From positions 96,001 through 160,000 of the IMG/VR virus record IMGVR_UViG_3300025436_000002: DNA of 64,000 bases. The stretch is one strand, 5' to 3'. Position numbers and translations under genes: made by a program. The DNA is from a virus. Shown here in pieces: positions 1 through 36,595 of this stretch. Under the pieces are notes generated by a model. It saw only the letters and a program-made list of their open reading frames with translations, did no database searches and was not told the origin of the DNA. Every line of letters begins with the position of its first letter. Within the stretch, counting starts at the first letter, position 1.

Positions 1-239
1 TGGACGAAGAGGGAATCCTTTTTGGATTATACTGTAGGACTTGTAAAGAGTTATACTATTATCAAGACGTAAATCCTTATGATAATATTGATAGAATACA
101 TTACAGATCTGCGGAAGAACTTAGAGATAGACTATCCTCAGATAGTAGCAGGTTTTGTAATTATAATAGTAGCTTCAAAGTAATAACAGATGAGAAAGAG
201 ATCAATAAGTATCTTATGGTGAGGGAGTTATTAAAATGA
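1..239 (+). CDS. ELLK-tail family small protein (5' partial)
   Basis: Ends EINKYLMVRELLK*, with the TGA overlapping the ATG at 236. Confidence 0.75.
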   Translation, partial: DEEGILFGLYCRTCKELYYYQDVNPYDNIDRIHYRSAEELRDRLSSDSSRFCNYNSSFKVITDEKEINKYLMVRELLK

Positions 240-418
240 GAGAACAGATAAACTTGACTTTGGATGATTTATGTGCTATACTGGATTGGGTAGAAGAAAA
301 CTTATTTGATTGTGACATGAGAGTTGAAGATGAAAATGATAAGGGAGTAGGCAAAGCATATAAAAGAATACGTAAGGAGATAAAAATACATGAACAAAGA
401 AGAATACCAGAGGATTAA
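236..418 (+). CDS. hypothetical protein
   Basis: ATGA-coupled start with a GGAG SD. Confidence 0.65.
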   Translation: MREQINLTLDDLCAILDWVEENLFDCDMRVEDENDKGVGKAYKRIRKEIKIHEQRRIPED

Positions 419-575
419 AAGTGAATCTACTAAATCCATGGATAGTCGTCTAGGAGTAGATAGGGGCAAGTATATTAAAGATGATTCAGAATTTGATGAT
501 TCAGAAATTATAGCATTCATTGTAGCATCTATACTTGTAATTGTCTTTAGCATGTTGTTCAGGGGGATTATCTAG
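390..575 (+). CDS. small membrane protein
   Basis: AAGGAG SD; C-terminal hydrophobic helix. Confidence 0.6.
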   Translation: MNKEEYQRIKSESTKSMDSRLGVDRGKYIKDDSEFDDSEIIAFIVASILVIVFSMLFRGII

Positions 576-746
576 ATGAATGAGAAACAATGTAAGGAAT
601 GTTTAGGTACTGGGAATATAAAGCATACGTATTCAAGAGGATTGTTAATAGGTAACTACTTGGGAACATGTGACTATTGTGGAGGTACTGGAAGCAGACT
701 AGTTAAAAGTAAAACTAAACTGGATAGAAACAATAACAAACAATAA
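576..746 (+). CDS. DnaJ-type zinc-finger small protein (not in ORF track)
   Basis: 56 aa with two CxxCxGxG motifs (CKECLGTG, CDYCGGTG). Confidence 0.7.
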   Translation: MNEKQCKECLGTGNIKHTYSRGLLIGNYLGTCDYCGGTGSRLVKSKTKLDRNNNKQ

Positions 747-791
747 CTAAAATGATACTGTGATTCAAAGGCAGTCTAGGGATTAGCTACA

Positions 792-1085
792 ATGTATTAC
801 TATAAAAAAGTACAGATATCTTGCCTCTCTCTTGATATAGGTATTGGGAAATATGGAGATGATTTGAAAGACTTATTACTAAAGTGGCTACTTAGAGGCT
901 ATATCCTTAAAATATACAGAAAAGGTGAAGAGATCTTCGACGGCACAGAAAGCCTAGGTCATTTAGAGCATGACGTAAAGCATTACCAACTGAGCCAACT
1001 TCGAGGAGATACCATGGAGTTATTAGATTTAGATGGGAATCCTACAGGTCTACATGGATCTATAAGAGAAAGAAGGTATTGGTAG
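792..1085 (+). CDS. hypothetical protein
   Basis: ORF fills the operon gap. Confidence 0.55.
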   Translation: MYYYKKVQISCLSLDIGIGKYGDDLKDLLLKWLLRGYILKIYRKGEEIFDGTESLGHLEHDVKHYQLSQLRGDTMELLDLDGNPTGLHGSIRERRYW

Positions 1086-1086
1086 C

Positions 1087-1413
1087 ATGAAAGAAGGTAC
1101 TGGTAAAATGTTTAACGATGCTAAAGTAATGAAACAAGAGTATATAGCAATATCCATGAGCTCCGAGATGGATAGGCATACTTATACTTACTTTATATCT
1201 TCGGGTGTCCTCTTCTTTCAAGCTATAAAAGAAGAGGGTAGGCTAGGGAAGATCCGTAAACACTACCTAAGTAATAAGTACCCCTCTAGGGAAGACTGTC
1301 TTAAAGAACTAATTAAATTTAGTAAGGATGCATTAAATGGATATGAATTAGTAGCTGTAAGTTCACAACAAGAGATTGATAGATATATGATGACAAGGGA
1401 GCTATTAAAATGA
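1087..1413 (+). CDS. ELLK-tail family small protein
   Basis: MKQEYIAIS...IDRYMMTRELLK*. Confidence 0.8.
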   Translation: MKEGTGKMFNDAKVMKQEYIAISMSSEMDRHTYTYFISSGVLFFQAIKEEGRLGKIRKHYLSNKYPSREDCLKELIKFSKDALNGYELVAVSSQQEIDRYMMTRELLK

Positions 1414-1682
1414 ACGTAGTTAAAAATTTAGTAGCTGTGGCAATTCCTCCGTTACAGAGACTTGATACAAAGTTTTTCCACCTTGATGAGTATGGGATGT
1501 ATGTAGAGGAGTGTGTTTATCTTGGAGAAGATTACCTTGACCGTTCTACCCTACATACTCTTAGGGAAGTAGATCATGATCTTAGAAGGAGATTAGCTAT
1601 CTTTGAATGTACAAGTTTTAGTATCGTACAGGAGGAGAAAGAACTTAGGAAGTATTCTATGATTATGGAGTTGATGAGATGA
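1410..1682 (+). CDS. ELLK-tail family small protein
   Basis: ATGA overlap; LRKYSMIMELMR*. Confidence 0.8.
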   Translation: MNVVKNLVAVAIPPLQRLDTKFFHLDEYGMYVEECVYLGEDYLDRSTLHTLREVDHDLRRRLAIFECTSFSIVQEEKELRKYSMIMELMR

Positions 1683-1696
1683 ATTACAACTTTCTC

Positions 1697-1750
1697 GTCC
1701 CTAGGGCATTCTAATCCATTTGTTACTGGTTTTAGTTAAAAATAAATAGG
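1697..1750 (+). repeat. dispersed ~55-bp intergenic element, copy 1
   Basis: cgtccctagggc...atttgttactggt.ttagttaaaaataaa recurs at 5734-5788. Confidence 0.8.
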
Positions 1751-1761
1751 ATGTTGTTAAA

Positions 1762-2073
1762 ATGAAAGAAGAGCAGTGGAAAGTTTTTCGTCAAGATAAT
1801 GAATACTGTATCTCAAGTCATGGTAGATTTATAAGAAGAGATACTGGAGTCTGTTTAAATATAGTAAAAAACTACACTCGTAAGGGCAATTTAACTAGCT
1901 CCAGTGTAGGCATCAGGACTAATGGCAAACGATATTCCTATACTATTCCCATACTAGTTCTTAGTTATTTTAAAGAACCCTCTCCTTATAAAGGATGTAT
2001 TACTTTCCATATTAATGGAGATCCTATGGATAATACAATAGATAATCTAATATGGAAGGGGGTGTTGAAATGA
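1762..2073 (+). CDS. NUMOD4-HNH homing endonuclease-like protein (short, possibly degenerate)
   Basis: WKVF...YCISSHGR (NUMOD4-like) and HINGDPMDNTIDNLIW (HNH). Confidence 0.7.
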   Translation: MKEEQWKVFRQDNEYCISSHGRFIRRDTGVCLNIVKNYTRKGNLTSSSVGIRTNGKRYSYTIPILVLSYFKEPSPYKGCITFHINGDPMDNTIDNLIWKGVLK

Positions 2074-2387
2074 ATAAAGATTTTACATTGGAGATATTAG
2101 TAATATTAGACACCTTGCCCTCCGTTGCGTTTTATAGTTCGCAAGGTAAGTATTATATAAGTACCTGCCCATGGCAATTCACTGAGGAGATATTATTTAA
2201 AGATAGGTTTAAACATGTATTAGTTAAGACTTCACATAGCCGTGAAGAAGCTATCAAGAGATTTGAAGATTATACAGATAGGGAAGTACTGACTGATAGG
2301 GAAGCTATACGGAGGGCAATGGGGGAATATCATCAAAAAATAAAGGACTTGCACCCTAGGATAGCTACTGGTAAAATGTTAAAGTAA
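2070..2387 (+). CDS. hypothetical protein
   Basis: ATGA overlap start (MNKDF). Confidence 0.65.
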   Translation: MNKDFTLEILVILDTLPSVAFYSSQGKYYISTCPWQFTEEILFKDRFKHVLVKTSHSREEAIKRFEDYTDREVLTDREAIRRAMGEYHQKIKDLHPRIATGKMLK

Positions 2388-2467
2388 TGTAACGAACTTA
2401 GAAAGGTAGGCTTGTAACTGAGTCTACCTTATGCTATACTAACTATGTAAGGTTGATTAAAGGAGAC
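2386..2467 (+). promoter_or_regulatory. stem-loop sigma70-type promoter module
   Basis: GTAAC box; IR aaggtaggctt/gagtctacctt; -35 TTGTAA 2412; 17 bp spacer; TG-TATACT 2435; leader gtaaggttgattaaaggag. Confidence 0.8.
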
Positions 2468-2473
2468 TGTATT

Positions 2474-3004
2474 ATGATTATTAAAGAAGCTAAAACTTTA
2501 GAAGATATAATTAAGGTCTACACCCAAGCTGAAAAGAAATATGGAGTAGTTGATGGTATAAGAAATTATAGGGTAGAAACACATGAAGACAGGGATATAT
2601 CCGTAGCCGTAATATACCTTACTGATTATAAAGGTAACGAGTATGAGGTTATAAGAAATAGATGTCCTAGGGGACAGAACTTTAAAGCTTTCATTGAAGG
2701 AAAATTATATTCTATAGTATTTGCATGGAATATAGGGAATACTGTGGGTGTTAGATTATCAAGTCATGATCTAATATCTAAACCACAGTTACTTTTTAGG
2801 ATTACACACGCAAAGAGCAAAGGTAAAACGGTAGCTCCTAAAGTCTCTTTTACTATAATTAAAGTGCTAAGGGTACAATGCTCTTGTGGTAAAGAATACA
2901 CTGAGCATGAGAACGAAGAAAATAGCTGGTATAACTTAGCGGGAGTTATAAAGGGAGAAGCTTCCCTAGTTTGCGAGAGTTGTGGACTAACCCTTAAAGT
3001 TTAG
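2474..3004 (+). CDS. hypothetical protein with C-terminal Zn ribbon
   Basis: CSCG...CESCG; SD upstream of the ATG at 2474. Confidence 0.7.
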   Translation: MIIKEAKTLEDIIKVYTQAEKKYGVVDGIRNYRVETHEDRDISVAVIYLTDYKGNEYEVIRNRCPRGQNFKAFIEGKLYSIVFAWNIGNTVGVRLSSHDLISKPQLLFRITHAKSKGKTVAPKVSFTIIKVLRVQCSCGKEYTEHENEENSWYNLAGVIKGEASLVCESCGLTLKV

Positions 3005-3030
3005 GTAGGTTAATTAAAGGAGTTAATGAA

Positions 3031-3303
3031 ATGATTAATAAGATCAGGGAGTTAATAACTAAAGCCAGAAATGATAAAAAGAGTTTAGAGAGAGCATACC
3101 TAGAGTATATGAGGGATGCTTACGTTGATATTTATTTGAGTAGTGCCTTGGATAGTATCGATAAAGATAATAACAGAGATTGGGACAGTGGCTTCTCGGA
3201 TGAGGAAGCCCTTCTATGGGCTGAGGATAGGGGGCTTGATTTCGAAGACTACATGGGAAGAGTTGAGGAGAACGACGGTGAACCTGTGGAGTATTTTGGT
3301 TAA
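3031..3303 (+). CDS. acidic protein with MINKIRELI leader
   Basis: N-terminus matches the leader family; SD aaggagttaatgaaATG. Confidence 0.7.
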   Translation: MINKIRELITKARNDKKSLERAYLEYMRDAYVDIYLSSALDSIDKDNNRDWDSGFSDEEALLWAEDRGLDFEDYMGRVEENDGEPVEYFG

Positions 3304-3331
3304 TTAAGGAGTTATTGAAATAATCGGTATA

Positions 3332-3429
3332 CTAAGAAGAAGTACGACTGTAAAGATTATAGGTGGCAGGCATGAGTAAAAAAATATGTAGCGTTAACCC
3401 TAGACAAGGGCAAAATAAAGTACAAATAC
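3332..3429 (+). repeat. duplicated segment (paralogous to 6569-6669)
   Basis: aagaagaagtac.actgtaaagat.ata.gtggcaggcatg...tagacaagggcaaa.taa.gtacaaat is shared. Confidence 0.85.
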
Positions 3430-3606
3430 TTTATGGTAGGCAATGAATTACACATAGAGTTTTATAATGGAACTACTAACTACGCATCTGAGCAGAGTCT
3501 TGAGGAGAATTTTAAGTATGATAAAAGTACTTTAACTGACCCTTTTTTAGTGGAAGGAGTTCAAGAAGCTAATAAGTTCTTAATGGCGGGGGAGTTATTG
3601 AAATGA
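3372..3606 (+). pseudogene. ELLK-tail family gene frameshifted in an A7 run
   Basis: ATG AGT AAAAAAA TAT; an A6 run would give MSKKYVALTLDKG...ANKFLMAGELLK*. Confidence 0.75.
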
Positions 3607-3917
3607 ATAGGAAATATGTAGCATTGTCAACCTTCATAGACAGTAGGGATATAATAGAATATGTTCTGTATAGTACTCATGTCTTTAAAGGAGATGGTAA
3701 GACTTATCTCGAATGTATCACAGAAAGCATGATTGAACATAAAGATTGTCCTTATTATGCTAAAGATGTATGGGATTCCAATCTTCATACAGAAGGTATT
3801 AATATTAGAAAGTCTTTGAGTCAACACCTTAGCTATGACAGATCTCAAGGGTATAAAACAACTAGGGATGTAAAGGTTATAAACAATTTCTTAATGATGA
3901 AGGAGTTATTAAAATAA
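3603..3917 (+). CDS. ELLK-tail family small protein
   Basis: MNRKYVALS...INNFLMMKELLK*. Confidence 0.85.
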   Translation: MNRKYVALSTFIDSRDIIEYVLYSTHVFKGDGKTYLECITESMIEHKDCPYYAKDVWDSNLHTEGINIRKSLSQHLSYDRSQGYKTTRDVKVINNFLMMKELLK

Positions 3918-3933
3918 CATAAGGAGAAGAATA

Positions 3934-4194
3934 ATGACAAACCGAGAAGATGCAAAATTCATATTCGTTAGTATTATAGCAGAAGACTGTGTATATATTA
4001 GTGACGAAGCATTAGAAGACGGGCAAGATGAGGTTAAAAAGAGTCCGTCATTTAGTTGGTTTCCAACGGAGGACGAACGAAAACAACACTTAAATCATAT
4101 AAGCCTATACCATAGGAACATACATGAACTTCCAATACTGGATAGATTTGGAAAGACCCTCGACTTTAAAACAGTTGGAGAATACTTAGCATAA
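3934..4194 (+). CDS. hypothetical protein
   Basis: AAGGAG SD. Confidence 0.7.
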   Translation: MTNREDAKFIFVSIIAEDCVYISDEALEDGQDEVKKSPSFSWFPTEDERKQHLNHISLYHRNIHELPILDRFGKTLDFKTVGEYLA

Positions 4195-4197
4195 CAT

Positions 4198-4279
4198 AAT
4201 GTAACGAACCATGCCCGAAGAGATTGACCTATCTTCGGGCATGTGCTATTATAATATGGTAAGATTGATTGAAAGGAGT
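4198..4279 (+). promoter_or_regulatory. stem-loop sigma70-type promoter module
   Basis: 12-bp IR catgcccgaaga/tcttcgggcatg; TTGACC 4224; TG-TATTAT 4247. Confidence 0.8.
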
Positions 4280-4284
4280 GTTAC

Positions 4285-4430
4285 ATGATTAGACCCAAGT
4301 TAACTTATATAACATCTGTCCTCAATCTTACTACCATGTTTCAACTTTACGTATGGATAAGTGTAGAACAGTATCAACCAAGACTAGTATTATCAGTAAA
4401 TATTTAATGACTTTGGAGTTATTAAAATGA
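4285..4430 (+). pseudogene. ELLK-tail remnant
   Basis: The SD-linked ATG at 4285 is out of frame with the tail ISKYLMTLELLK*. Confidence 0.55.
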
Positions 4431-4711
4431 AACCAAAACTATATCCTACACAAAAGATAGAAAATGATGAAGGTATAGAATACATAGCTCTCTCGTACTC
4501 AGGTTCAAGAATATTATACGGGTACTCCTATAATAAGGATGGAAAGCTTGTAGCTCATGATATTAGTAGTAACGGAGTTCACACCTTTATGCCCAGCGGA
4601 AAACTAGATACCGAGCTACAACGAGATAGAATCTTATTTACAAATGTTAAAACTACTAAGTCTAAGAAGAAGATAAAAAAGTTACTAATGATTCGGGAGC
4701 TACTAAGATGA
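4427..4711 (+). CDS. ELLK-tail family small protein
   Basis: EYIALSY...IKKLLMIRELLR*. Confidence 0.85.
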   Translation: MKPKLYPTQKIENDEGIEYIALSYSGSRILYGYSYNKDGKLVAHDISSNGVHTFMPSGKLDTELQRDRILFTNVKTTKSKKKIKKLLMIRELLR

Positions 4712-4965
4712 TAATAATAAAAGATGAGGAGATAATATTAGCTGTAATAAAGCCCATGGACAAGACAGAAGAGCCTTATATATTCTTATACTTCTGGGAT
4801 GGTGGCAGACTTTGTTATTGGGATAACAAAGGGAGGTGGAATCGAAGTTGCCACTCTGAGCTTGATGAGTTGTATGAAGACCTTTCATCATTGAAGATCT
4901 ATGAAATAACAACGGATGAATCTGTAATAAAGAAATATATCATGGCTATGGAGTTACTAAAATGA
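4708..4965 (+). CDS. ELLK-tail family small protein (paralog of 6790)
   Basis: FLYFW....LCYWD; IKKYIMAMELLK*. Confidence 0.85.
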   Translation: MIIIKDEEIILAVIKPMDKTEEPYIFLYFWDGGRLCYWDNKGRWNRSCHSELDELYEDLSSLKIYEITTDESVIKKYIMAMELLK

Positions 4966-5252
4966 ATCCTAATGATCCTATACTAGATTTTAGTCATATA
5001 GAGCTTACTTTGATCTGCTGGGTAGCTATAAAGAATCAAAGTATGGAGCCTCTATATTTCTATGTGGATAAGGACACGGATTTATACTTCTATAACCCAT
5101 GGTATTACACTAAGTTAAGTTTAAATATTTCCCTAGACTTAGCTTATCCGCATGAGTTAAAAGATTATCTGGATGATGGTAACTATATATGGAAATCCGA
5201 TCAGTTAGGGATTGCCAAAAAGTATAGTGTACTACAGGAGTTAATGAAATGA
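4962..5252 (+). CDS. ELLK-tail family small protein
   Basis: AKKYSVLQELMK*. Confidence 0.8.
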   Translation: MNPNDPILDFSHIELTLICWVAIKNQSMEPLYFYVDKDTDLYFYNPWYYTKLSLNISLDLAYPHELKDYLDDGNYIWKSDQLGIAKKYSVLQELMK

Positions 5253-5483
5253 CTAGAGAATACATAGCTCTATCCACAAGAGAAGAAGACGGAAAGTATT
5301 GGTTATACTGGATGAAAGGATCTAAATTAATGTTCTCGGATAGGTGTGACGGTGGAGCACAGTTCAGCCAACTACTAGATTTAAAACAGAATCTTAATAG
5401 TGATAAGGTTAGTGCTATATACTTCGACTAAAGATCCAAAAAAGATAGCAAAGTTTTTAATGATAAGAGAGTTATTAAAATGA
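5249..5483 (+). pseudogene. ELLK-tail family gene, frameshifted
   Basis: The MTREYIALS frame stops at 5431; the tail TKDPKKIAKFLMIRELLK* is in another frame. Confidence 0.7.
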
Positions 5484-5725
5484 ATAAGGAATACGTAGTC
5501 ATAACTTTGAAAAAGAATGGGGATGTAAAATATAGATATTATTATATATCTGGAGAATTGTATTATGATTCCTATGGTAACTATGGTAACTATAACGTTC
5601 TCGGATCTCTTGCTCCGATAAATGATCTTGCAGCAAATCTCGATGATGATACATGCTGGGGTCATGAGACCTTGGTGGGTAATGAGGCTATAAAGTATCT
5701 AATGGTACAAGAGTTAAAAAAATAA
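5480..5725 (+). CDS. ELLK-tail family small protein
   Basis: MNKEYVVIT...AIKYLMVQELKK*. Confidence 0.85.
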   Translation: MNKEYVVITLKKNGDVKYRYYYISGELYYDSYGNYGNYNVLGSLAPINDLAANLDDDTCWGHETLVGNEAIKYLMVQELKK

Positions 5726-5733
5726 TCATTTCC

Positions 5734-5788
5734 CGTCCCTAGGGCGTTTGGATCTATTTGTTACTGGTATTAGTTAAAAATAAAAGGA
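5734..5788 (+). repeat. dispersed ~55-bp intergenic element, copy 2
   Basis: Matches 1697-1750. Confidence 0.8.
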
Positions 5789-5797
5789 GATTAGAGT

Positions 5798-6346
5798 ATG
5801 ACATGTATCGTGGGAATCAAAACAACTGACAATGTTTACATAGGCGGAGATACATTTGGATCAAATGGACATACTGGAGAAAGCTACCTAAGACCTAAGG
5901 TATTTAAAAAAGGTAACATGATTATAGGAGTCTGTGGTAGTTATAGATTAATGCAAATACTGGAGTTCTGTTTAGAGCTACCTAAGAAATACGAAGGCAT
6001 CAGCACAGAGAAGTATTTATATATAGATTTCATTAATGCTGTAAGAACTACTTTAAAAGCAAACGGACTCCTTGCTGTTGATAAGGGTGTTGAATCCATG
6101 GATGGAGGAATATTCTTGATGGGATATGAAGGAGAGTTATACAAAGTACAGCAAGATTTATCAATACTCATGCCTGCTTCTGGATACGCTTCTGTAGGCT
6201 CTGGATGTGACCATGCTAAGGCTAGTCTATTCTCTACGGAGGGACTACTATTGGATCCTAAAGAGAGGATAGTTAAAGCAATAGAATGTGCCAACAACTT
6301 TGTAGTAAGTGTTAACGGTGAGAATAATATAATAAGTTTAATTTAA
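5798..6346 (+). CDS. HslV/proteasome-beta-like Ntn peptidase
   Basis: N-terminal MTCIVG with Thr nucleophile; GGD, KVF, GVCG, YASVGSG. Confidence 0.8.
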   Translation: MTCIVGIKTTDNVYIGGDTFGSNGHTGESYLRPKVFKKGNMIIGVCGSYRLMQILEFCLELPKKYEGISTEKYLYIDFINAVRTTLKANGLLAVDKGVESMDGGIFLMGYEGELYKVQQDLSILMPASGYASVGSGCDHAKASLFSTEGLLLDPKERIVKAIECANNFVVSVNGENNIISLI

Positions 6347-6349
6347 AGT

Positions 6350-6431
6350 AATGTAACAAAGATATTAAGACAGACTTGAAATATAGTCTGTCTTATGTTA
6401 TTCTAAGTAAGTAAGGTTAATTACTAAGGAG
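6350..6431 (+). promoter_or_regulatory. stem-loop sigma70-type promoter module
   Basis: IR taagacagact/agtctgtctta; TTGAAA 6376; TG-TATTCT 6399; gtaaggttaatt leader. Confidence 0.8.
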
Positions 6432-6438
6432 TTACATC

Positions 6439-6612
6439 ATGAGTTTTGAAATAAGTATTGAACCTAGGTGTGGAGTCTATGGAGTCGCTCATGTATTTGA
6501 TAAGACTCGTAACTTAGAGAGAGCTATCGAAAGTTGTGTCCTTAACAATAGAAATGAACTTACAACTATAAAGAAGAAGTACAACTGTAAAGATCATAAG
6601 TGGCAGGCATGA
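6439..6612 (+). CDS. hypothetical protein (57 aa, not in ORF track)
   Basis: AAGGAG SD; ends KKKYNCKDHKWQA*; its 3' end is duplicated at ~3332. Confidence 0.65.
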   Translation: MSFEISIEPRCGVYGVAHVFDKTRNLERAIESCVLNNRNELTTIKKKYNCKDHKWQA

Positions 6613-6692
6613 ATAAAGAGTATATAGCACTAACCTTAGACAAGGGCAAAGTAAGGTACAAATTCTTAATGTCTCAGGAGTTATTAAAATGA
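6609..6692 (+). CDS. 27-aa internally deleted ELLK-tail mini-gene
   Basis: MNKEYIALTLDKGKVRYKFLMSQELLK*. Confidence 0.7.
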   Translation: MNKEYIALTLDKGKVRYKFLMSQELLK

Positions 6693-6789
6693 TATCATAC
6701 GTTAATCCTTATACACCTATTGATGAAGATACTGAATACAAAGGTATATCCTATTCTGGAACAAAGATACCTAAGAGTAGGTATTCTGT

Positions 6790-7020
6790 ATGATTATAAA
6801 AGGGGAAGAGATAATAGCTGCACTCATCAACCCTGAGAGTACAACATGGGCATTCTTATACTTCTGGTCTCATGATAAGTTGTGTTATTGGGATAGTACT
6901 ATGTCATTTAATACTAGCCGATTCAGGACTCTCGAGGGGTTATCTATGGATAACCCTCACTATACATCAGACATGCAAAAGATTAGTAAGTTTTTAATGA
7001 CAAAGGAGTTATTAAAGTGA
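6790..7020 (+). CDS. ELLK-tail family small protein
   Basis: ISKFLMTKELLK*. Confidence 0.85.
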   Translation: MIIKGEEIIAALINPESTTWAFLYFWSHDKLCYWDSTMSFNTSRFRTLEGLSMDNPHYTSDMQKISKFLMTKELLK

Positions 7021-7319
7021 ATAAAACATATGTAGCCATCTTAGATAAATCATATTATGATTGTATTTATGTATTCTATTTCTATTCTAAGAAAGAAGTA
7101 TTAGTACCTTCAGGCGTTCTTATGTATGATTCATATAATAGACATACTAATAGATGTATTGATGGGAATATTTGGAGAGGGTTAGTATTAAAGTTAACTA
7201 GAGAAGCGTGGCTAAGGCAACTAAAACATGACTACAATGCTGACGACAGTACTCTTACTGATATTGACACACAGAATGATGTAGATAAATTTCTTATGGT
7301 AATAGAGTTACTAAAGTAA
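7017..7319 (+). CDS. ELLK-tail family small protein
   Basis: GTGA overlap; VDKFLMVIELLK*. Confidence 0.85.
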   Translation: MNKTYVAILDKSYYDCIYVFYFYSKKEVLVPSGVLMYDSYNRHTNRCIDGNIWRGLVLKLTREAWLRQLKHDYNADDSTLTDIDTQNDVDKFLMVIELLK

Positions 7320-7398
7320 TGTAACAAACATGCCTGCAAAGGATTGAACTCTCTTCTGACATGTGCTAGTATAATTATATAAGATTGAATGTAAGGAG
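7318..7398 (+). promoter_or_regulatory. degenerate stem-loop promoter module
   Basis: GTAAC box; TTGAAC 7344; TG-TAGTAT 7367; residual acatg/catgt arms. Confidence 0.65.
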
Positions 7399-7438
7399 AT
7401 ATTGAAATGGTAGAGAAGAAATTACTAACAAGTTAGGT

Positions 7439-8050
7439 GTGGAATTAAATTTCATATCTTATTTTTTCGTAGGGGATTGTTCCTTGTGGGGAGTGGCCTA
7501 CATATACTTCGATGGCAAAGACATACGAGCCTATAGCCCGAAAAGGGGTACTGCCATGTATGGATCAGACTGTATACTCAGTGCCTATCCTGAGGAATGG
7601 GATTATAGAGAAATAAAGTACATAACATCTTATGGCGTTTCTAAAAAAGAAGTGGAAGATTTTATATCCAATTCTTCCGAAGACCTCGACGAAACTAAAG
7701 AATTCCTAGTAAAGCATGGGATAGTATGTTCGGATACAATAAGAGCTGATCTAGCTAGTCGAATAGGTATAGGTAGAAAATATGTACCTCTCACCATTGA
7801 TGAACTTGTAGATAAGTTATACAGTATCTTAGAGTCAAAGAATGTAGAATTATCTCGAGAAACTGAACTATCCCAAGTATATAATAAAACTGATAAGAGT
7901 CGTCTGGTAGACAGTACTATTGGGAATATACTGTACGAGGATGATTATAACGGATTTAAGAAACTTAGTAACGACTTAGGATGGTTACTAGATTCAGACT
8001 ATGGAAATACATCAGTATGTCTATATACTGATACAAATCTAAACGTATAG
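7439..8050 (+). CDS. hypothetical protein
   Basis: 203-aa ORF. Confidence 0.7.
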   Translation: MELNFISYFFVGDCSLWGVAYIYFDGKDIRAYSPKRGTAMYGSDCILSAYPEEWDYREIKYITSYGVSKKEVEDFISNSSEDLDETKEFLVKHGIVCSDTIRADLASRIGIGRKYVPLTIDELVDKLYSILESKNVELSRETELSQVYNKTDKSRLVDSTIGNILYEDDYNGFKKLSNDLGWLLDSDYGNTSVCLYTDTNLNV

Positions 8051-8061
8051 GAAGATAAGGG

Positions 8062-8093
8062 TTGACCTATCTTTGGGCGTGTGTTAGTATAAT
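8062..8093 (+). promoter_or_regulatory. promoter, right half of the 4198-type module
   Basis: ttgacctatctttgggcgtgtgttagtataat resembles 4224-4255. Confidence 0.7.
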
Positions 8094-8122
8094 TATAGAT
8101 TAGATATAAGAAAGAGGTTGCA

Positions 8123-8560
8123 ATGTTTAAAAATTTTAAGAAGCTGTTGAACTGTCAGAGGGAGATACCTAAATCCGAAGTAATACCAATAATGAGTTCT
8201 GAGGAAGAAAAAACTCAGGAGATTTGTGAAGAGCTTGTGAAATTAATGTACCGTATTCTAGAAAGTAACTTCCTTACAGATGAAATGAATAGAGAATACT
8301 TAGCCTTGTGGACTCCCATCACCCCAGATTCGAAATTTTCTAATTCTGAAGAGTACTACATCTTCTACCACTACCGTAAAAATTTAGGATACGATAGGTA
8401 TTCCAAAGGAGTTAAAGTGTCTACTGATAATAAATGGAAGACAGTTAAGGGGAATTGTTTAGATTATTTAAGGGATTACCTTGGGGAGGATAATATTACT
8501 CCCATAGAATCTCTTAAGGATGTCGATAAGTACCTAATGACGTGGGAGTTATTAAGGTGA
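8123..8560 (+). CDS. ELLK-tail family protein with a fused N-terminal extension
   Basis: Internal MNREYLAL at 8285; VDKYLMTWELLR*. Confidence 0.8.
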   Translation: MFKNFKKLLNCQREIPKSEVIPIMSSEEEKTQEICEELVKLMYRILESNFLTDEMNREYLALWTPITPDSKFSNSEEYYIFYHYRKNLGYDRYSKGVKVSTDNKWKTVKGNCLDYLRDYLGEDNITPIESLKDVDKYLMTWELLR

Positions 8561-8814
8561 ATGAATGTGTTGCTGTATCCTATAATGAAGATTGTGTTAT
8601 AAAATACTACTACCTACAACTATGTGGTAGAATGGAACTTGTCTATGATGTTATTCAGAGGGATTCATCCTCACCTAAAAGCCATGTTACCTCAAGAAGA
8701 TGTCATACTACTTTAACTGAGGAACTTGATAGAGATAAATTTTGCGAGTATACTATAGTAACGGACAAGAAGGGGATACTCTTGAAACTTATGGAATTGG
8801 AGTTAATGAGATGA
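8557..8814 (+). CDS. ELLK-tail family small protein
   Basis: GTGA overlap start; LLKLMELELMR*. Confidence 0.8.
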   Translation: MNECVAVSYNEDCVIKYYYLQLCGRMELVYDVIQRDSSSPKSHVTSRRCHTTLTEELDRDKFCEYTIVTDKKGILLKLMELELMR

Positions 8815-9080
8815 GTAGATACAAAACTATTGAGGTGTCTGACATAGTAGCCTTATCTTACAAAGCTACTTCAATGTTTATCTATGGATATTCTAAAGAG
8901 AGTAGTAGACTTCTTGTTCAGCATAGATCCTACGAAGATGGTGGAAGATCTTTAGCTATAGTGGAAATCAGTTTATCATTAGCCCACAACTTAACTCTGG
9001 ATATATCACAGGGTTACTCGACTACTAAAGACCCAAAGGAGATCGCTAAGATATTAATGACGTGGGAGTTACTAAAATGA
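8811..9080 (+). CDS. ELLK-tail family small protein
   Basis: ATGA overlap; IAKILMTWELLK*. Confidence 0.85.
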   Translation: MSRYKTIEVSDIVALSYKATSMFIYGYSKESSRLLVQHRSYEDGGRSLAIVEISLSLAHNLTLDISQGYSTTKDPKEIAKILMTWELLK

Positions 9081-9364
9081 ATAGAAAGTACATATGCCTA
9101 TATAAACAATCTCATGGATATTATGTTCTATACCGATATCCAGATTCTGAAACAGTCTATTTTGATTGTTATGATAATGACTTTAAAATTGAAGTTAAGA
9201 AGATACCCAGCAGTGCTAGGATAACTCTAGGTACTCATGGAGAAGAATATGTCCAACTCAATAGATCAAACTTAGAATCTTATGATGATCCAGATTTATT
9301 AATTCCTATTAGAAGTAAATCAGATTTGGATAAGTATTTTATGGTAGAGGAGTTGCTAAGGTAA
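9077..9364 (+). CDS. ELLK-tail family small protein
   Basis: MNRKYICL...LDKYFMVEELLR*. Confidence 0.85.
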   Translation: MNRKYICLYKQSHGYYVLYRYPDSETVYFDCYDNDFKIEVKKIPSSARITLGTHGEEYVQLNRSNLESYDDPDLLIPIRSKSDLDKYFMVEELLR

Positions 9365-9375
9365 CGGAGATTAAA

Positions 9376-9387
9376 TTTATATTATAA
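9376..9387 (+). promoter_or_regulatory. putative late promoter TTTATATTATAA
   Basis: Motif recurs upstream of about 12 genes. Confidence 0.6.
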
Positions 9388-9417
9388 GCACATAGAGGAT
9401 TACGTAGGAAGGTAGCA

Positions 9418-9774
9418 ATGATAAAAAATATAAGACAGCTAGTGGAAGATGCTACAAACAAGCTAGATGCCAAGAGAGTGGCTAAGATGAGTTCATCTGA
9501 GAGAGAAAATTATTTCCATGATGAGGATAGAGTATATGATGACCTACCTCAGATGCTTGATGATGTTTTTGTAAATGATAAATTTGGATTTGTTCGAGTA
9601 TTCGACAATGGAGTTATGCGGGCATGTGGAGTCTTTGATCTTACCACTTCTGCAATCCAAGTAACGCCTAAATTAGTTTTAAATAAACTCCTCATTAAAT
9701 ATCCTAAGGCTACATTTGTGTACACGGATTATCCTTCCAATAATTTTAGGACACTTGATCTGATAGAAGTATAA
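9418..9774 (+). CDS. protein with leader MIKNIRQLVE
   Basis: Leader family; late motif upstream. Confidence 0.75.
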   Translation: MIKNIRQLVEDATNKLDAKRVAKMSSSERENYFHDEDRVYDDLPQMLDDVFVNDKFGFVRVFDNGVMRACGVFDLTTSAIQVTPKLVLNKLLIKYPKATFVYTDYPSNNFRTLDLIEV

Positions 9775-9835
9775 CAATAACTTAATAAATATTAAAAGCA
9801 GACTTGTAATATAGTCTGCTTTGTGCTATACTATA
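9772..9835 (+). promoter_or_regulatory. stem-loop sigma70-type promoter module
   Basis: IR aaagcagact/agtctgcttt; TTGTAA 9804; TG-TATACT 9827. Confidence 0.8.
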
Positions 9836-9864
9836 ATTAATATTATATTTAAAGGGTGAGATAA

Positions 9865-10176
9865 ATGTTACTACTCGAGACAGGTATGATGAAATACAAT
9901 ATGACAGAAGTAGTCGCTATTCTAGCAGTAGAAGGAGATACCTCTTATATTGAATACTTCTGGACAGGATCTATTTTGAGTAGCAGGGTAAATATACCTC
10001 CCAGATATATAGGGATACCTACTAGATCTACCAATACTACATACACATGCGAGGTTAATACTTTAGAAGAGTTAGAGCATCGGGAGATGGTAACATCAAA
10101 GAACAAATATAAAGTATTTATCAAAGGAGTTCACTCAGTCAATAAGTATCTTATGATGAAGGAATTACTCAAATGA
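9865..10176 (+). CDS. ELLK-tail family small protein
   Basis: VNKYLMMKELLK*. Confidence 0.85.
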   Translation: MLLLETGMMKYNMTEVVAILAVEGDTSYIEYFWTGSILSSRVNIPPRYIGIPTRSTNTTYTCEVNTLEELEHREMVTSKNKYKVFIKGVHSVNKYLMMKELLK

Positions 10177-10481
10177 ATAAAAGTGTCTCAAAGATTTATA
10201 CACATTGTTACGGTGATGACAAACTAATAGCCATAGCTGAATTTACAACGAGGTCAATTGGCAGTAATATTCTTTATAGGTATTGGTACATGAGTAGTAA
10301 CTTACTTAGTAATAATACTCTTAACACTTCATACCTTGAGAGAAGCGAGTATGGTCATTTATTGGATATTCAATCAGACTTTGAACAAGTTAGAAGCGAA
10401 GTAGCTAGATACTCAGGGAGGTTGATAACTGATCAGAAAGCTCTAGATAAACATATGATGATGAGAGAGTTATTAAAATGA
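10173..10481 (+). CDS. ELLK-tail family small protein
   Basis: LDKHMMMRELLK*. Confidence 0.85.
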   Translation: MNKSVSKIYTHCYGDDKLIAIAEFTTRSIGSNILYRYWYMSSNLLSNNTLNTSYLERSEYGHLLDIQSDFEQVRSEVARYSGRLITDQKALDKHMMMRELLK

Positions 10482-10819
10482 AAATAAAAGAGTTATTACT
10501 AGATTTTATAATACTACTTAATGTATTAGTACTGCCTACCCTGCTTCCAGAGATGTGTTGGATGAAAGTATGCTTTGAAGAATTCAATTATAGTCATCCC
10601 TTAATATCATGGCTAACCATGATAATTCCAGTTGTCGTATATTTCAAGGTTGCCTCATTCCTACTCCCTAAATTTATACTGTACGTATTTCCGAAAAGAT
10701 TTTTAGACTCTAATTTAGAAGCTAGATATGGAACTCTGACAGATGAACAAGCTACAGTATTTATAGTTTTACTTATAGGTATTGGACTCATATTTGCTTT
10801 AATTAATTTATATATTTAA
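10478..10819 (+). CDS. membrane protein (about 3 TM helices)
   Basis: Hydrophobic segments; ATGA-coupled. Confidence 0.7.
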   Translation: MKIKELLLDFIILLNVLVLPTLLPEMCWMKVCFEEFNYSHPLISWLTMIIPVVVYFKVASFLLPKFILYVFPKRFLDSNLEARYGTLTDEQATVFIVLLIGIGLIFALINLYI

Positions 10820-10831
10820 GGAGTTACTAAT

Positions 10832-11071
10832 ATGAAATGTAAAATTATCGCAATAGTTTTGATTAAGGAAAGTCGTAGAGTTACTAGACTATATTTTATG
10901 GATGAAAATTCCACACTATGCTATGTACATCCATGGCTACCAACTCGATTTATAAGTGCATGTAGGGATTTAAAATCATTATCTAAGATCTTTCATAGTC
11001 CAGACACGGAGTTAATTATAGATAAAAATAAAATTAACAAGTATATTATGGCACAGGGGTTATTGAAATGA
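10832..11071 (+). CDS. ELLK-tail family small protein
   Basis: INKYIMAQGLLK*. Confidence 0.8.
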   Translation: MKCKIIAIVLIKESRRVTRLYFMDENSTLCYVHPWLPTRFISACRDLKSLSKIFHSPDTELIIDKNKINKYIMAQGLLK

Positions 11072-11301
11072 TGGAATATGTAGCCCTAGTTCTTATAAAT
11101 AATGTACTAGAATTAGGGTATTTTTATCAGGAAGATAGGCTTTGTTATAGTTACTTTAATGGTTGCGGTTTCTATTATATCAGTCGTCACATCACATTAG
11201 AGACGTGTCTAAAAAATAGTTCTAAATTTTTAGGGTACTCAGTAGTAACGGATATAAAATGCATGAATAAACATCTTATGGCACAGGAGTTATTGAAATG
11301 A
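11068..11301 (+). CDS. ELLK-tail family small protein
   Basis: MMEYVAL...MNKHLMAQELLK*. Confidence 0.85.
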   Translation: MMEYVALVLINNVLELGYFYQEDRLCYSYFNGCGFYYISRHITLETCLKNSSKFLGYSVVTDIKCMNKHLMAQELLK

Positions 11302-11552
11302 TGGAATATGTAGCTCTTGAGATAACTAAATATGCATGGATTAAAAATTTGATAAGTTACTATGCATTAGACGTGAGTGGAGTATTGCATTTTAAACCTG
11401 ATGACTGGAATCTCTACAGACCGAGTAATCTAACTTTAGAAGAGTTATTAGAACTACATAAACCCGAGGGTATCAGATCAGAGTATTCTTACCTAATAAC
11501 TGATAAAAAAGAGATAGCTAAATACTTAATGACGAGAGAGTTATTGAAATGA
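11298..11552 (+). CDS. ELLK-tail family small protein
   Basis: MMEYVAL...IAKYLMTRELLK*. Confidence 0.85.
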   Translation: MMEYVALEITKYAWIKNLISYYALDVSGVLHFKPDDWNLYRPSNLTLEELLELHKPEGIRSEYSYLITDKKEIAKYLMTRELLK

Positions 11553-11971
11553 TGATTAGTTTTATAATAGGTTCCCTATGGCTTATATTTATATGGAAGA
11601 TTTGGACTCTGTTCCGAGATCAACCTGTTGAAGAGTCCGTTAGATTCCCTAAGGAAATTTGGAATTGGCAAGGGGGCTTTAGATCAGATTGTGGAGATAC
11701 TCCTTTCTGTATTGGATACCTAGATAAAGGTATTCTAGCTAATGGGGAGTGGAGTACTGCTGTGTTCTTTAAACTATGGTTCGAAGAAGGGACTAAAACG
11801 TATTGGGGCTCTTTCTTGCACATGGGACATCACATGATAGTTAGATCATTAACTGATGACTATAACGAAATACTCTTGGATGCTCGGAGTAAAGTGGGTT
11901 CTGATTTAAAGTTTGTTGAAGGTACCCGAGAAGTAGGTAGATTCTTAATGACACAGGAGTTACTTAGATGA
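11549..11971 (+). CDS. ELLK-tail protein with an N-terminal TM helix
   Basis: Hydrophobic N-terminus; VGRFLMTQELLR*. Confidence 0.8.
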   Translation: MMISFIIGSLWLIFIWKIWTLFRDQPVEESVRFPKEIWNWQGGFRSDCGDTPFCIGYLDKGILANGEWSTAVFFKLWFEEGTKTYWGSFLHMGHHMIVRSLTDDYNEILLDARSKVGSDLKFVEGTREVGRFLMTQELLR

Positions 11972-12213
11972 ATAGAGAATATATAGCTCTAAGCTATTCA
12001 GAAGATTCTAATCCATTCTTGATTAAATATTACTGGGATGGGGATACTCTTATGTTTGAATTAGGAAGAGATGACTCTATAAAAGAAATCTGGAAATCTA
12101 GGAGTAATAAACTAGATATTGAATTGTCTAGGGATACTGTGTCAGGTTATAAAACTATATGGAATCCTACAGAAGTGGCTAAGTACTTAATGACTCTGGA
12201 GTTACTAAAATGA
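11968..12213 (+). CDS. ELLK-tail family small protein
   Basis: MNREYIALSY...VAKYLMTLELLK*. Confidence 0.85.
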   Translation: MNREYIALSYSEDSNPFLIKYYWDGDTLMFELGRDDSIKEIWKSRSNKLDIELSRDTVSGYKTIWNPTEVAKYLMTLELLK

Positions 12214-24085: not shown

Positions 24086-24323
24086 AGAGTACGTAATTAT
24101 CGCCAAATTTTTTGATGACGGGCCAACACTGGAGTATTTTAGATATCCAGATAATTCTAATGATATTTACTATATGTTTTCAAATTGTACTAATCTAGAA
24201 AGTAGACATCCTTATAGTGTTGATCGTATAGTATGTGATCTTAGTCAAAGGAATACTGTAATGTTGTTAACAAATAAAAAAGATATAGATAAATACCTAA
24301 TGACCAAAGAATTATTAAAATAG
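24078..24323 (+). CDS. ELLK-tail family small protein
   Basis: MSKEYVII...IDKYLMTKELLK*. Confidence 0.85.
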   Translation: MSKEYVIIAKFFDDGPTLEYFRYPDNSNDIYYMFSNCTNLESRHPYSVDRIVCDLSQRNTVMLLTNKKDIDKYLMTKELLK

Positions 24324-24353
24324 ATTGTAAAGTTTCATTTCAATAACCTTACT

Positions 24354-24413
24354 GAGAGTCTTGACGACTCTCTTTTTTTATGCTATCATGTTCTTGTAAG
24401 GTTAAATAAGGAG
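24354..24413 (+). promoter_or_regulatory. overlapping intrinsic terminator and promoter module
   Basis: gagagtc/gactctc hairpin plus T7; TTGACG 24361; TG-TATCAT 24384. Confidence 0.75.
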
Positions 24414-36057: not shown

Positions 36058-36329
36058 TAAATAATAGAATAATACTTATAGTTATTTATGAGTCTGACTC
36101 TGATGTGATGAACTGTACTCAAATGTACTTTAGAGGAGATCGTGGCAAGGTATGTGGACGGGAGTATTATCATGGATCTCGGGATTATTTTGAATTTAAC
36201 ACGGGGCTATCCTCCCTCAAATGGTTGATAAAACGTATTAAAAAACAGTCTCTGTTGTTCAGTGAAACTATAATACAAGAACCACATAAGATAAATAAAT
36301 TTTTAATGACACAGGAGTTACTTAGATGA
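36054..36329 (+). CDS. ELLK-tail family small protein
   Basis: INKFLMTQELLR*. Confidence 0.85.
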   Translation: MINNRIILIVIYESDSDVMNCTQMYFRGDRGKVCGREYYHGSRDYFEFNTGLSSLKWLIKRIKKQSLLFSETIIQEPHKINKFLMTQELLR

Positions 36330-36595
36330 ATAGAGAATATATATCAGTCAGTTACTACCGTAGACGAAATGATTTAAAATATATAATTAAGATATATTTC
36401 TATTACGAAGGAATTATCTCCTACACGTATAATGATAATGTATACTCCACAGGTCGTAAGTATTTTAAAGCTTTTATCAATAGCGAACAAAAAAGTATCT
36501 TGCAAAATAAATATACAATGGGGTTTGATAGAGGCTTCGTACATGGAGTACAAGAAGTTAATAAATGTTTAATGATGTTGGAGTTATTGAAATGA
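36326..36595 (+). CDS. ELLK-tail family small protein
   Basis: MNREYISVS...VNKCLMMLELLK*. Confidence 0.85.
   Translation: MNREYISVSYYRRRNDLKYIIKIYFYYEGIISYTYNDNVYSTGRKYFKAFINSEQKSILQNKYTMGFDRGFVHGVQEVNKCLMMLELLK

Follow-up and report, generated by a model that had tools for sequence, protein, structure and literature searches.

A duplicated patch and a probable internal-deletion derivative in the small-gene cassette array of an uncultured freshwater phage

In T4-type phages, modular shuffling in hyperplastic regions is mediated by promoter-early stem-loop (PeSL) cassettes, in which short repeated regulatory motifs flank small ORFan genes of the plastic early region, and insertions, deletions and replacements end at these motifs (Arbiol et al., 2010, PMC2839356; Comeau et al., 2014, PMC4122927). 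Here we describe a pair of related loci between positions 3306 and 6692 of a 64,000-nucleotide (nt) stretch (hereafter the window) of the IMG/VR record IMGVR_UViG_3300025436_000002, for which PeSL shuffling is, by analogy, the closest described system. Each locus holds, intact or as a remnant, a gene for a protein of 57 amino acids (aa) followed by a member of a large family of small cassette genes, called A in the first copy and A' in the second. The pair probably results from duplication followed by divergent decay, A' having lost the body of its cassette by slipped-strand or illegitimate deletion at an imperfectly repeated short sequence (the codons for K-Y-F-M and for K-F-L-M). Both parts of this account have general counterparts: microhomology-mediated deletion between short direct repeats is classic in phage and bacterial genomes, and tandem multigene families undergo birth-and-death evolution, in which duplication is followed by the divergent decay of copies.

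The record is a single contig of 170.2 kb with 34% G+C, of which the window represents bases 96001-160000. The public sequencing runs containing it are freshwater metagenomes; it belongs to an uncultured 170-kb freshwater (lake) phage that is not T4-like by any test run here. The cassette array lies on the + strand, as do all features of the two copies described below, and extends from about 3.7 kb before the start of the window to about 36600. It consists of some 60 small paralogous open reading frames (ORFs), 64 ORFs with the characteristic tail being counted. The family layout is a head strand (M-N-x-E-Y-I-A-L), a Tyr-rich hairpin, and a tail of the type K-Y-L-M-x-x-E-L-L-K, in whose codons GGAG is followed, after an 8-nt spacer, by the ATG that starts the next gene, mostly with an ATGA stop/start overlap. 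This junction motif recurs about 60 times, with the general core GGAGTTATTGAAAT; its strict form has 38 matches in the window against an expectation of 0.03.

The likeness to PeSL cassettes lies in composite promoter-terminator modules at 2412, 4224, 6376 and about 7350, recognized on sequence evidence only, and in a gene at 3031 that sits between leader repeats of about 27 nt. The main repeated seam is different, being here a coding one that comprises the last helix of a cassette, the Shine-Dalgarno (SD) sequence and the ATG of the next gene, and the genes belong to one paralogous family instead of being unrelated ORFans. Moreover, PeSL shuffling is marked by motif-bounded indels between close genomes and by excised circles, whereas the likeness drawn here comes from the sequence of a single genome.

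The two loci are true duplicates. Self-BLAST of the whole genome aligns 3334-3435 with 6571-6671 at 85.3% identity over 102 nt, with one 1-nt gap (E 2.6e-24), which places this patch sixth in strength among the internal repeats of the genome. An earlier reading of the letters alone (the original prediction) had claimed homology between 3332-3429 and 6569-6669, only a few bases off. The patch contains the last 14 codons of the 57-aa gene, the ATGA stop/start overlap, and the first 20 or so codons of the cassette gene. The patch opens with 42 nt from the end of the 57-aa gene, which has no other paralogue, so the match does not reflect generic family similarity.

In the second locus, the 57-aa gene is intact (6439-6612) and ends in an ATGA overlap with the start of A'; only there is it provided with a promoter module and an SD. 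Besides the remnant in copy 1 it has no paralogue, and we found no homologue outside the phage in the databases searched. A' is a mini-gene of 27 aa (6609-6692) made of a head strand and a tail, the only parts that it shares with full-length cassettes. As the original prediction had noticed, and as can be read directly from the ORF, it passes from ...GKVRYK straight into FLMSQELLK; the product ends in KFLMSQELLK and its stop overlaps the next start in the ATGA at 6689-6692.

In the first locus, the 57-aa gene survives only as its final 14 codons and stop (3334-3375), which differ from 6571-6612 at 3 of 42 nt and were not called as an ORF; the truncation to about 14 codons had been rightly seen from the letters. 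The frame of this remnant (3319-3375) has no start codon, and an in-frame TGA precedes it at 3316-3318. As only locus 2 has the 57-aa gene in intact form, we take locus 2 as native at the left boundary and locus 1 as truncated. The remnant adjoins an SD-spacer element (3297-3323) that ends in ATA-A in place of ATG-A and starts no gene. This had been described as an orphan junction at 3306; such an element does exist, but it matches the leader of the gene at 3031-3303 better than it does a cassette tail. Positions 3297-3324 agree with the SD leader and start of that gene (3008-3035) at 25 of 27 positions with one gap, so that direct leader repeats flank 3031-3303, the left copy being the gene's own leader. 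The element is nearer to the promoter-proximal leader class, also present at 2451 and 12565, than to the cassette tail, and resembles the junction core too. Judged from sequence, the arrangement around 3031-3303 resembles the trace that an inserted cassette or a duplicated leader would leave.

Gene A (3372-3606), which the original prediction took for a full-length cassette, is full-length in layout but frameshifted. Its ATG at 3372 reads an out-of-frame ORF of 24 codons, while the body is a frame of 74 codons (3382-3606) ending in NKFLMAGELLK. The frameshift is due to an extra A in a run of seven (3378-3384), one base more than in copy 2; the 77-aa frame is recovered in full if one A is lost or if a +1 slip takes place on AAA-A. 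The sole product that gene callers predict from A has 57 aa and begins with the M of KYFM. Once the frame is restored, A aligns end to end with the cassettes at 5480 (35% identity, E 1e-7) and 30781 (E 1e-6), and the alignment passes unbroken through K-Y-K-Y-F-M-V-G-N-E-L, the Tyr-rich hairpin of the family. As A is thus colinear with its paralogues across the KYFM site, it is native at the right boundary, and the deletion is in A'. The tail of A (3574-3606) encodes KFLMAGELLK and the stop, and carries the SD and the ATG of the next gene (3603), with the overlap ATGA at 3603-3606.

Where the deletion would have occurred can be located by comparing the tail of A with its own interior. The 13-mer that opens the tail (3574-3586) was slid over 189 interior positions of A, and its single best match, at 3424 (3424-3436, the KYFM codons), agrees at 10 of 13 positions and is in frame; the next best site reaches 9 of 13. 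This internal pseudo-tail sits exactly where the similarity between A and A' ends, and marks the left breakpoint of the deletion in A'. In a three-way comparison of the 13-mers, the first of three informative sites in the hybrid join itself (6660-6672) agrees with the head and the other two with the tail. The likeness of KYFM to KFLM at the breakpoint, proposed from the letters, is therefore borne out as an imperfect homeology, and the breakpoint coincides with it. In shuffled interiors the chance of a match of at least 10 of 13 is 3e-4 per position, and the probability of any such site in A is 0.06. An internal match of this quality to the cassette's own tail is present in 4 of 58 intact cassettes, which equals the shuffled expectation. 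The pseudo-tail is hence peculiar to A and not a feature of the family, and we rejected the idea that it is a general trait predisposing cassettes to head-to-tail deletion. The tail of A' was also compared with those of the other cassettes; assigning it to one donor was uninformative, ten tails agreeing with it at 27-28 of 33 positions.

Taken together, these comparisons support A' as an in-frame internal-deletion derivative of an A-like cassette. The history that we consider probable would begin with an ancestral unit, formed by a promoter module, a leader, the 57-aa gene and A, that was duplicated within the tandem array. The downstream copy would then have lost the body of A in frame, from the K-Y-F-M codons of the beta-hairpin to the K-F-L-M codons of a cassette tail, either that of A itself or one further downstream. 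In the upstream copy, the 57-aa gene would have been cut to its last 14 codons behind a start-less leader, and A would have acquired one A in the run of seven, which shifted its frame. The order of these events is one that we infer. As in microhomology-mediated deletion, the endpoints of A' lie on similar short sequences and one hybrid copy is left at the join; as in birth-and-death evolution, copies in the array show truncation, frameshift and internal deletion. The stubs differ from ordinary birth-and-death decay in that they keep translational-coupling signals, and the deletions look biased towards head-plus-tail remnants.

This structure recurs in independent material. The 57-aa protein was found on 15 contigs, and we compared ten contigs from ENA, JGI and Logan assemblies of different samples, all of which cover locus 2 and two of which also cover locus 1. 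They are 99.3-100% identical to the window and each covered copy is structurally unchanged; the sole difference in both copies is an A>G single-nucleotide polymorphism at 6649 (K>R in A') in 2 of the 10 (L004 and L006). Logan contigs of four public runs span both loci without a gap, and the run of seven A is unchanged in the contigs of X1, X5 and X6 and in L001 and L006. Loose ends of contigs carry adaptor remnants that we take to be short-read tagmentation (Nextera-type) adaptors, which makes a homopolymer error at this run unlikely. The invariance of both forms across samples indicates that the structure is real and is a fixed relic with no live polymorphism. The original prediction had spoken of a snapshot of recombination, which does not hold: both forms are fixed in all samples, with no undeleted allele among them. 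Overall, what it had observed at the two loci is confirmed, while its interpretation is supported in part only.

Live polymorphism is present elsewhere in the array. A 24-nt in-frame deletion (4795-4818), removing 8 codons of cassette E, is bounded by perfect TGGGAT repeats of which one is kept; it occurs in one X5 contig, L002 and L006, and other assemblies carry the undeleted allele. With a perfect 6-nt repeat and both alleles seen, it is a textbook case of microhomology-mediated deletion, and is direct evidence that short-repeat deletions arise in the array.

The patch likely lies inside a larger, mosaic colinear duplication, as suggested by a series of markers that follow one another in the same order in both loci: 1691-1751 and 5729-5788 (87% identity), a first pair of terminator-hairpin/promoter modules (TP-a and TP-a'), the patch, and a second pair (TP-b, 4192-4284, and TP-b', 7312-7408; 78%). 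TP-a, with its SD leader (2379-2465; TTGTAA-17-TATACT with TG), heads the copy-1 operon, and TP-a', also with an SD leader (6343-6431; 76-78% identity to 2379-2465), heads that of copy 2. All four modules show a hairpin with a -35-like TTGnnn box in its loop, followed by TGnTATnCT, and continue into a GTAAGGTTRATT...GGAG leader; differences between copies in the hairpin arms are compensatory. The genes lying between the markers are not the same in the two loci, which makes the duplication a mosaic. Locus 1 has two extra genes (2474-3004 and 3031-3303), and where it has an HNH endonuclease and an unknown gene, locus 2 has an HslV-like peptidase (5798-6346). The endonuclease is encoded by a free-standing small gene (1762-2073; PHROG 59/959, E 5e-14 / 5e-13; Pfam HNH_3 below cutoff) that has a terminator/promoter module on either side and is 1.3 kb upstream of copy 1, and the peptidase gene occupies the equivalent slot of locus 2.

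Downstream of A', the second locus continues with counterparts of two further cassettes of the first. D' (6689-6793) is a truncated homologue of 34 aa whose sole paralogue match is cassette D (4427-4711; E 0.005), in syntenic position and with 60% nt identity. It has neither body nor tail, yet keeps its ATGA overlap with E' (6790-7020). E' and cassette E (4708-4965) are each other's best paralogue, with an identity of 42% in aa (E 6e-16) and 63% in nt. In locus 2 the 57-aa gene, A', D', E' and the gene at 7017 are chained by four stop/start overlaps (ATGA or GTGA), all of them intact. This suggests selection for coupling-preserving deletions, in-frame head-plus-tail deletions surviving because they keep the translational coupling of downstream genes. 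Decay extends to neighbouring cassettes: in the short 4285-4430 and in 5249-5483 the head frame stops early and a K-x-L-M...ELLK tail stands in another frame, identically in all covering contigs. With A, A', D' and the 57-aa remnant, six of about 16 cassettes in 3300-7400 are decayed, a density that points to relaxed selection. What we see is ordinary molecular evolution, namely gene decay, in an unusual and undescribed cassette array.

Several observations weigh against the history proposed above. The homeology at the breakpoint is imperfect, and the crossover interval, judged from copy 1, comes down to one shared base; unlike in a textbook microhomology deletion, the ancestral sequences are inferred from a paralogue that has diverged by 15% and not from a parental allele. 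The tail of A' matches that of A at 27 of 33 positions, and five other tails match it as well or better. Being no closer to the tail of A than to several others, it may reflect a deletion that extended to a tail beyond that of A and took away more than one cassette. Identity between the loci is uneven, at 85% in the patch, 76-87% in the promoter modules, 60% in D/D' and 63% (nt) in E/E', and the patch could be a later gene-conversion tract and not a relic of the first duplication. Pairing of TP-a with TP-a' and of TP-b with TP-b' (78%) is only modestly better than that of cross pairs (67-74%), so a large-scale duplication is likely but not proven. Finally, neither an undeleted A' allele nor an intermediate state was found in the ten contigs, the four runs or the databases searched.

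This unevenness is the starting point of an alternative that we regard as unlikely, in which the patch is a recent non-reciprocal transfer (gene conversion or template switch) from locus 2 to locus 1, between paralogous units that are much older; the right edge of the tract would be set where the likeness of donor and recipient ends (KYFM versus KFLM). The contrast between the patch (85%) and the syntenic D/D' and E/E' (60-63% nt) fits such a transfer, as does the small number of differences (3 of 42 nt) in the locus-1 remnant of the 57-aa gene, which is non-functional, and the HNH endonuclease at 1762-2073 could supply breaks that are repaired from the paralogue. However, the flanking non-coding markers are similarly close (76-87%), and cassette bodies diverge fast throughout the family, so that a contrast in identity need not mean unequal ages. 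Left-hand homology able to resolve the tract is absent beyond a few bases, and loss of the body of A' or its ancestor by the same deletion would still be required.

More improbable still, in our view, is that A' is a selected micro-protein of 27 aa (head strand plus C-terminal helix) or a translational relay that has been kept, with the run of seven A acting as a regulated site of +1 ribosomal or transcriptional slippage. A' is in frame, has kept both overlapping start/stop signals, is fixed in all samples and shows a conservative K>R as its sole polymorphism; the A run is identical in independent samples, and either the removal of one A or a +1 slip would bring back the 77-aa frame. Nevertheless, the truncation or frameshift of six of about 16 cassettes in 3300-7400 argues for relaxed selection, and seven A are short for efficient transcriptional slippage. 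Hardly credible is an assembly artefact, by collapse or chimera at junction motifs that recur some 60 times, as the origin of the duplication or the deletion. Contigs do show joints (3606>4942 and 4432>6667), and these were considered as recombinant molecules and rejected: their short side of 24-26 nt is the shared motif, and their loose ends correspond to other junctions in this genome. Both loci are spanned, with neither gap nor difference, by contigs from separate ENA, JGI and Logan assemblies, and an artefact, which the original prediction had named as a possible refutation, is thereby excluded.

The original prediction had also cast the junction motif as a recombination hotspot. In its favour, the right-hand ends of both the A' deletion and D' lie at or beside SD-spacer-ATG motifs, as do the repeats on either side of 3031, and these motifs may be preferred seams. 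Selection for translational-coupling signals would, however, give the same pattern of breakpoints, which leaves a hotspot plausible but not demonstrated. It is doubtful that SD-spacer-ATG junctions and leaders, together with the terminator/promoter modules, are seams of high-frequency recombination at which cassettes are deleted, duplicated and swapped as units, possibly triggered by the HNH endonuclease. If this were true, the array would be a coding-sequence counterpart of PeSL or integron-like shuffling of cassettes; the pair at 3306-6692 would then count among the footprints of this process, and the head-plus-tail stub would be the scar typical of it.

Other repeats are present in the array. 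The strongest short one is a 113-nt repeat of 94.7% identity between 6378-6266 before the window start and 24297-24409 in the window, 30 kb apart, which begins at a cassette tail and extends into the adjoining non-coding stretch. Between 11938-11985 and 36296-36343, a patch of 48 nt comprising junction plus head is 95.8% identical in cassettes that lie 24 kb apart and have otherwise dissimilar bodies; it could stem from a junction-centred exchange or from strong constraint. Other genes noted in the window encode an RNA ligase (31028), a polyvalent-type ADP-ribosyltransferase (37448; PF18760, E 5e-47) and at least four Amidoligase_2 paralogues (40438, 47418, 55837 and 57587, within 37448-59155).

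Undeleted alleles and relatives were looked for in several ways. Megablast and tblastn against phage records gave no close match, and queries with the 57-aa gene, A and E brought up no relatives among viral contigs. A word-indexed search of 5.8 billion proteins matched only proteins of this phage, and a full HMMER search of A against 1.84 billion representatives yielded A itself plus spurious matches in long repetitive proteins. An exact-pattern scan of JGI metagenome contigs for the 102-nt patch gave no match. In phages with an HslV-like peptidase (L011-L015, 32-43% identity), the junction motif is absent near that gene, and it is absent throughout three whole records of such phages. Neither A nor the 57-aa gene, 3031 or the cassettes nearby had a match in Pfam or PHROGs, and Rfam gave none over positions 1-12000.

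For the phage, the pair of loci offers a dated and internally controlled example of turnover in a very large gene array, in which the deletions that survive keep the signals for handing the ribosome over from one gene to the next. The 24-nt polymorphism, the run of seven A and the two joins provide markers with which turnover of the array can be followed in lake time series. The value of the pair is as supporting evidence on how the cassette array evolves.

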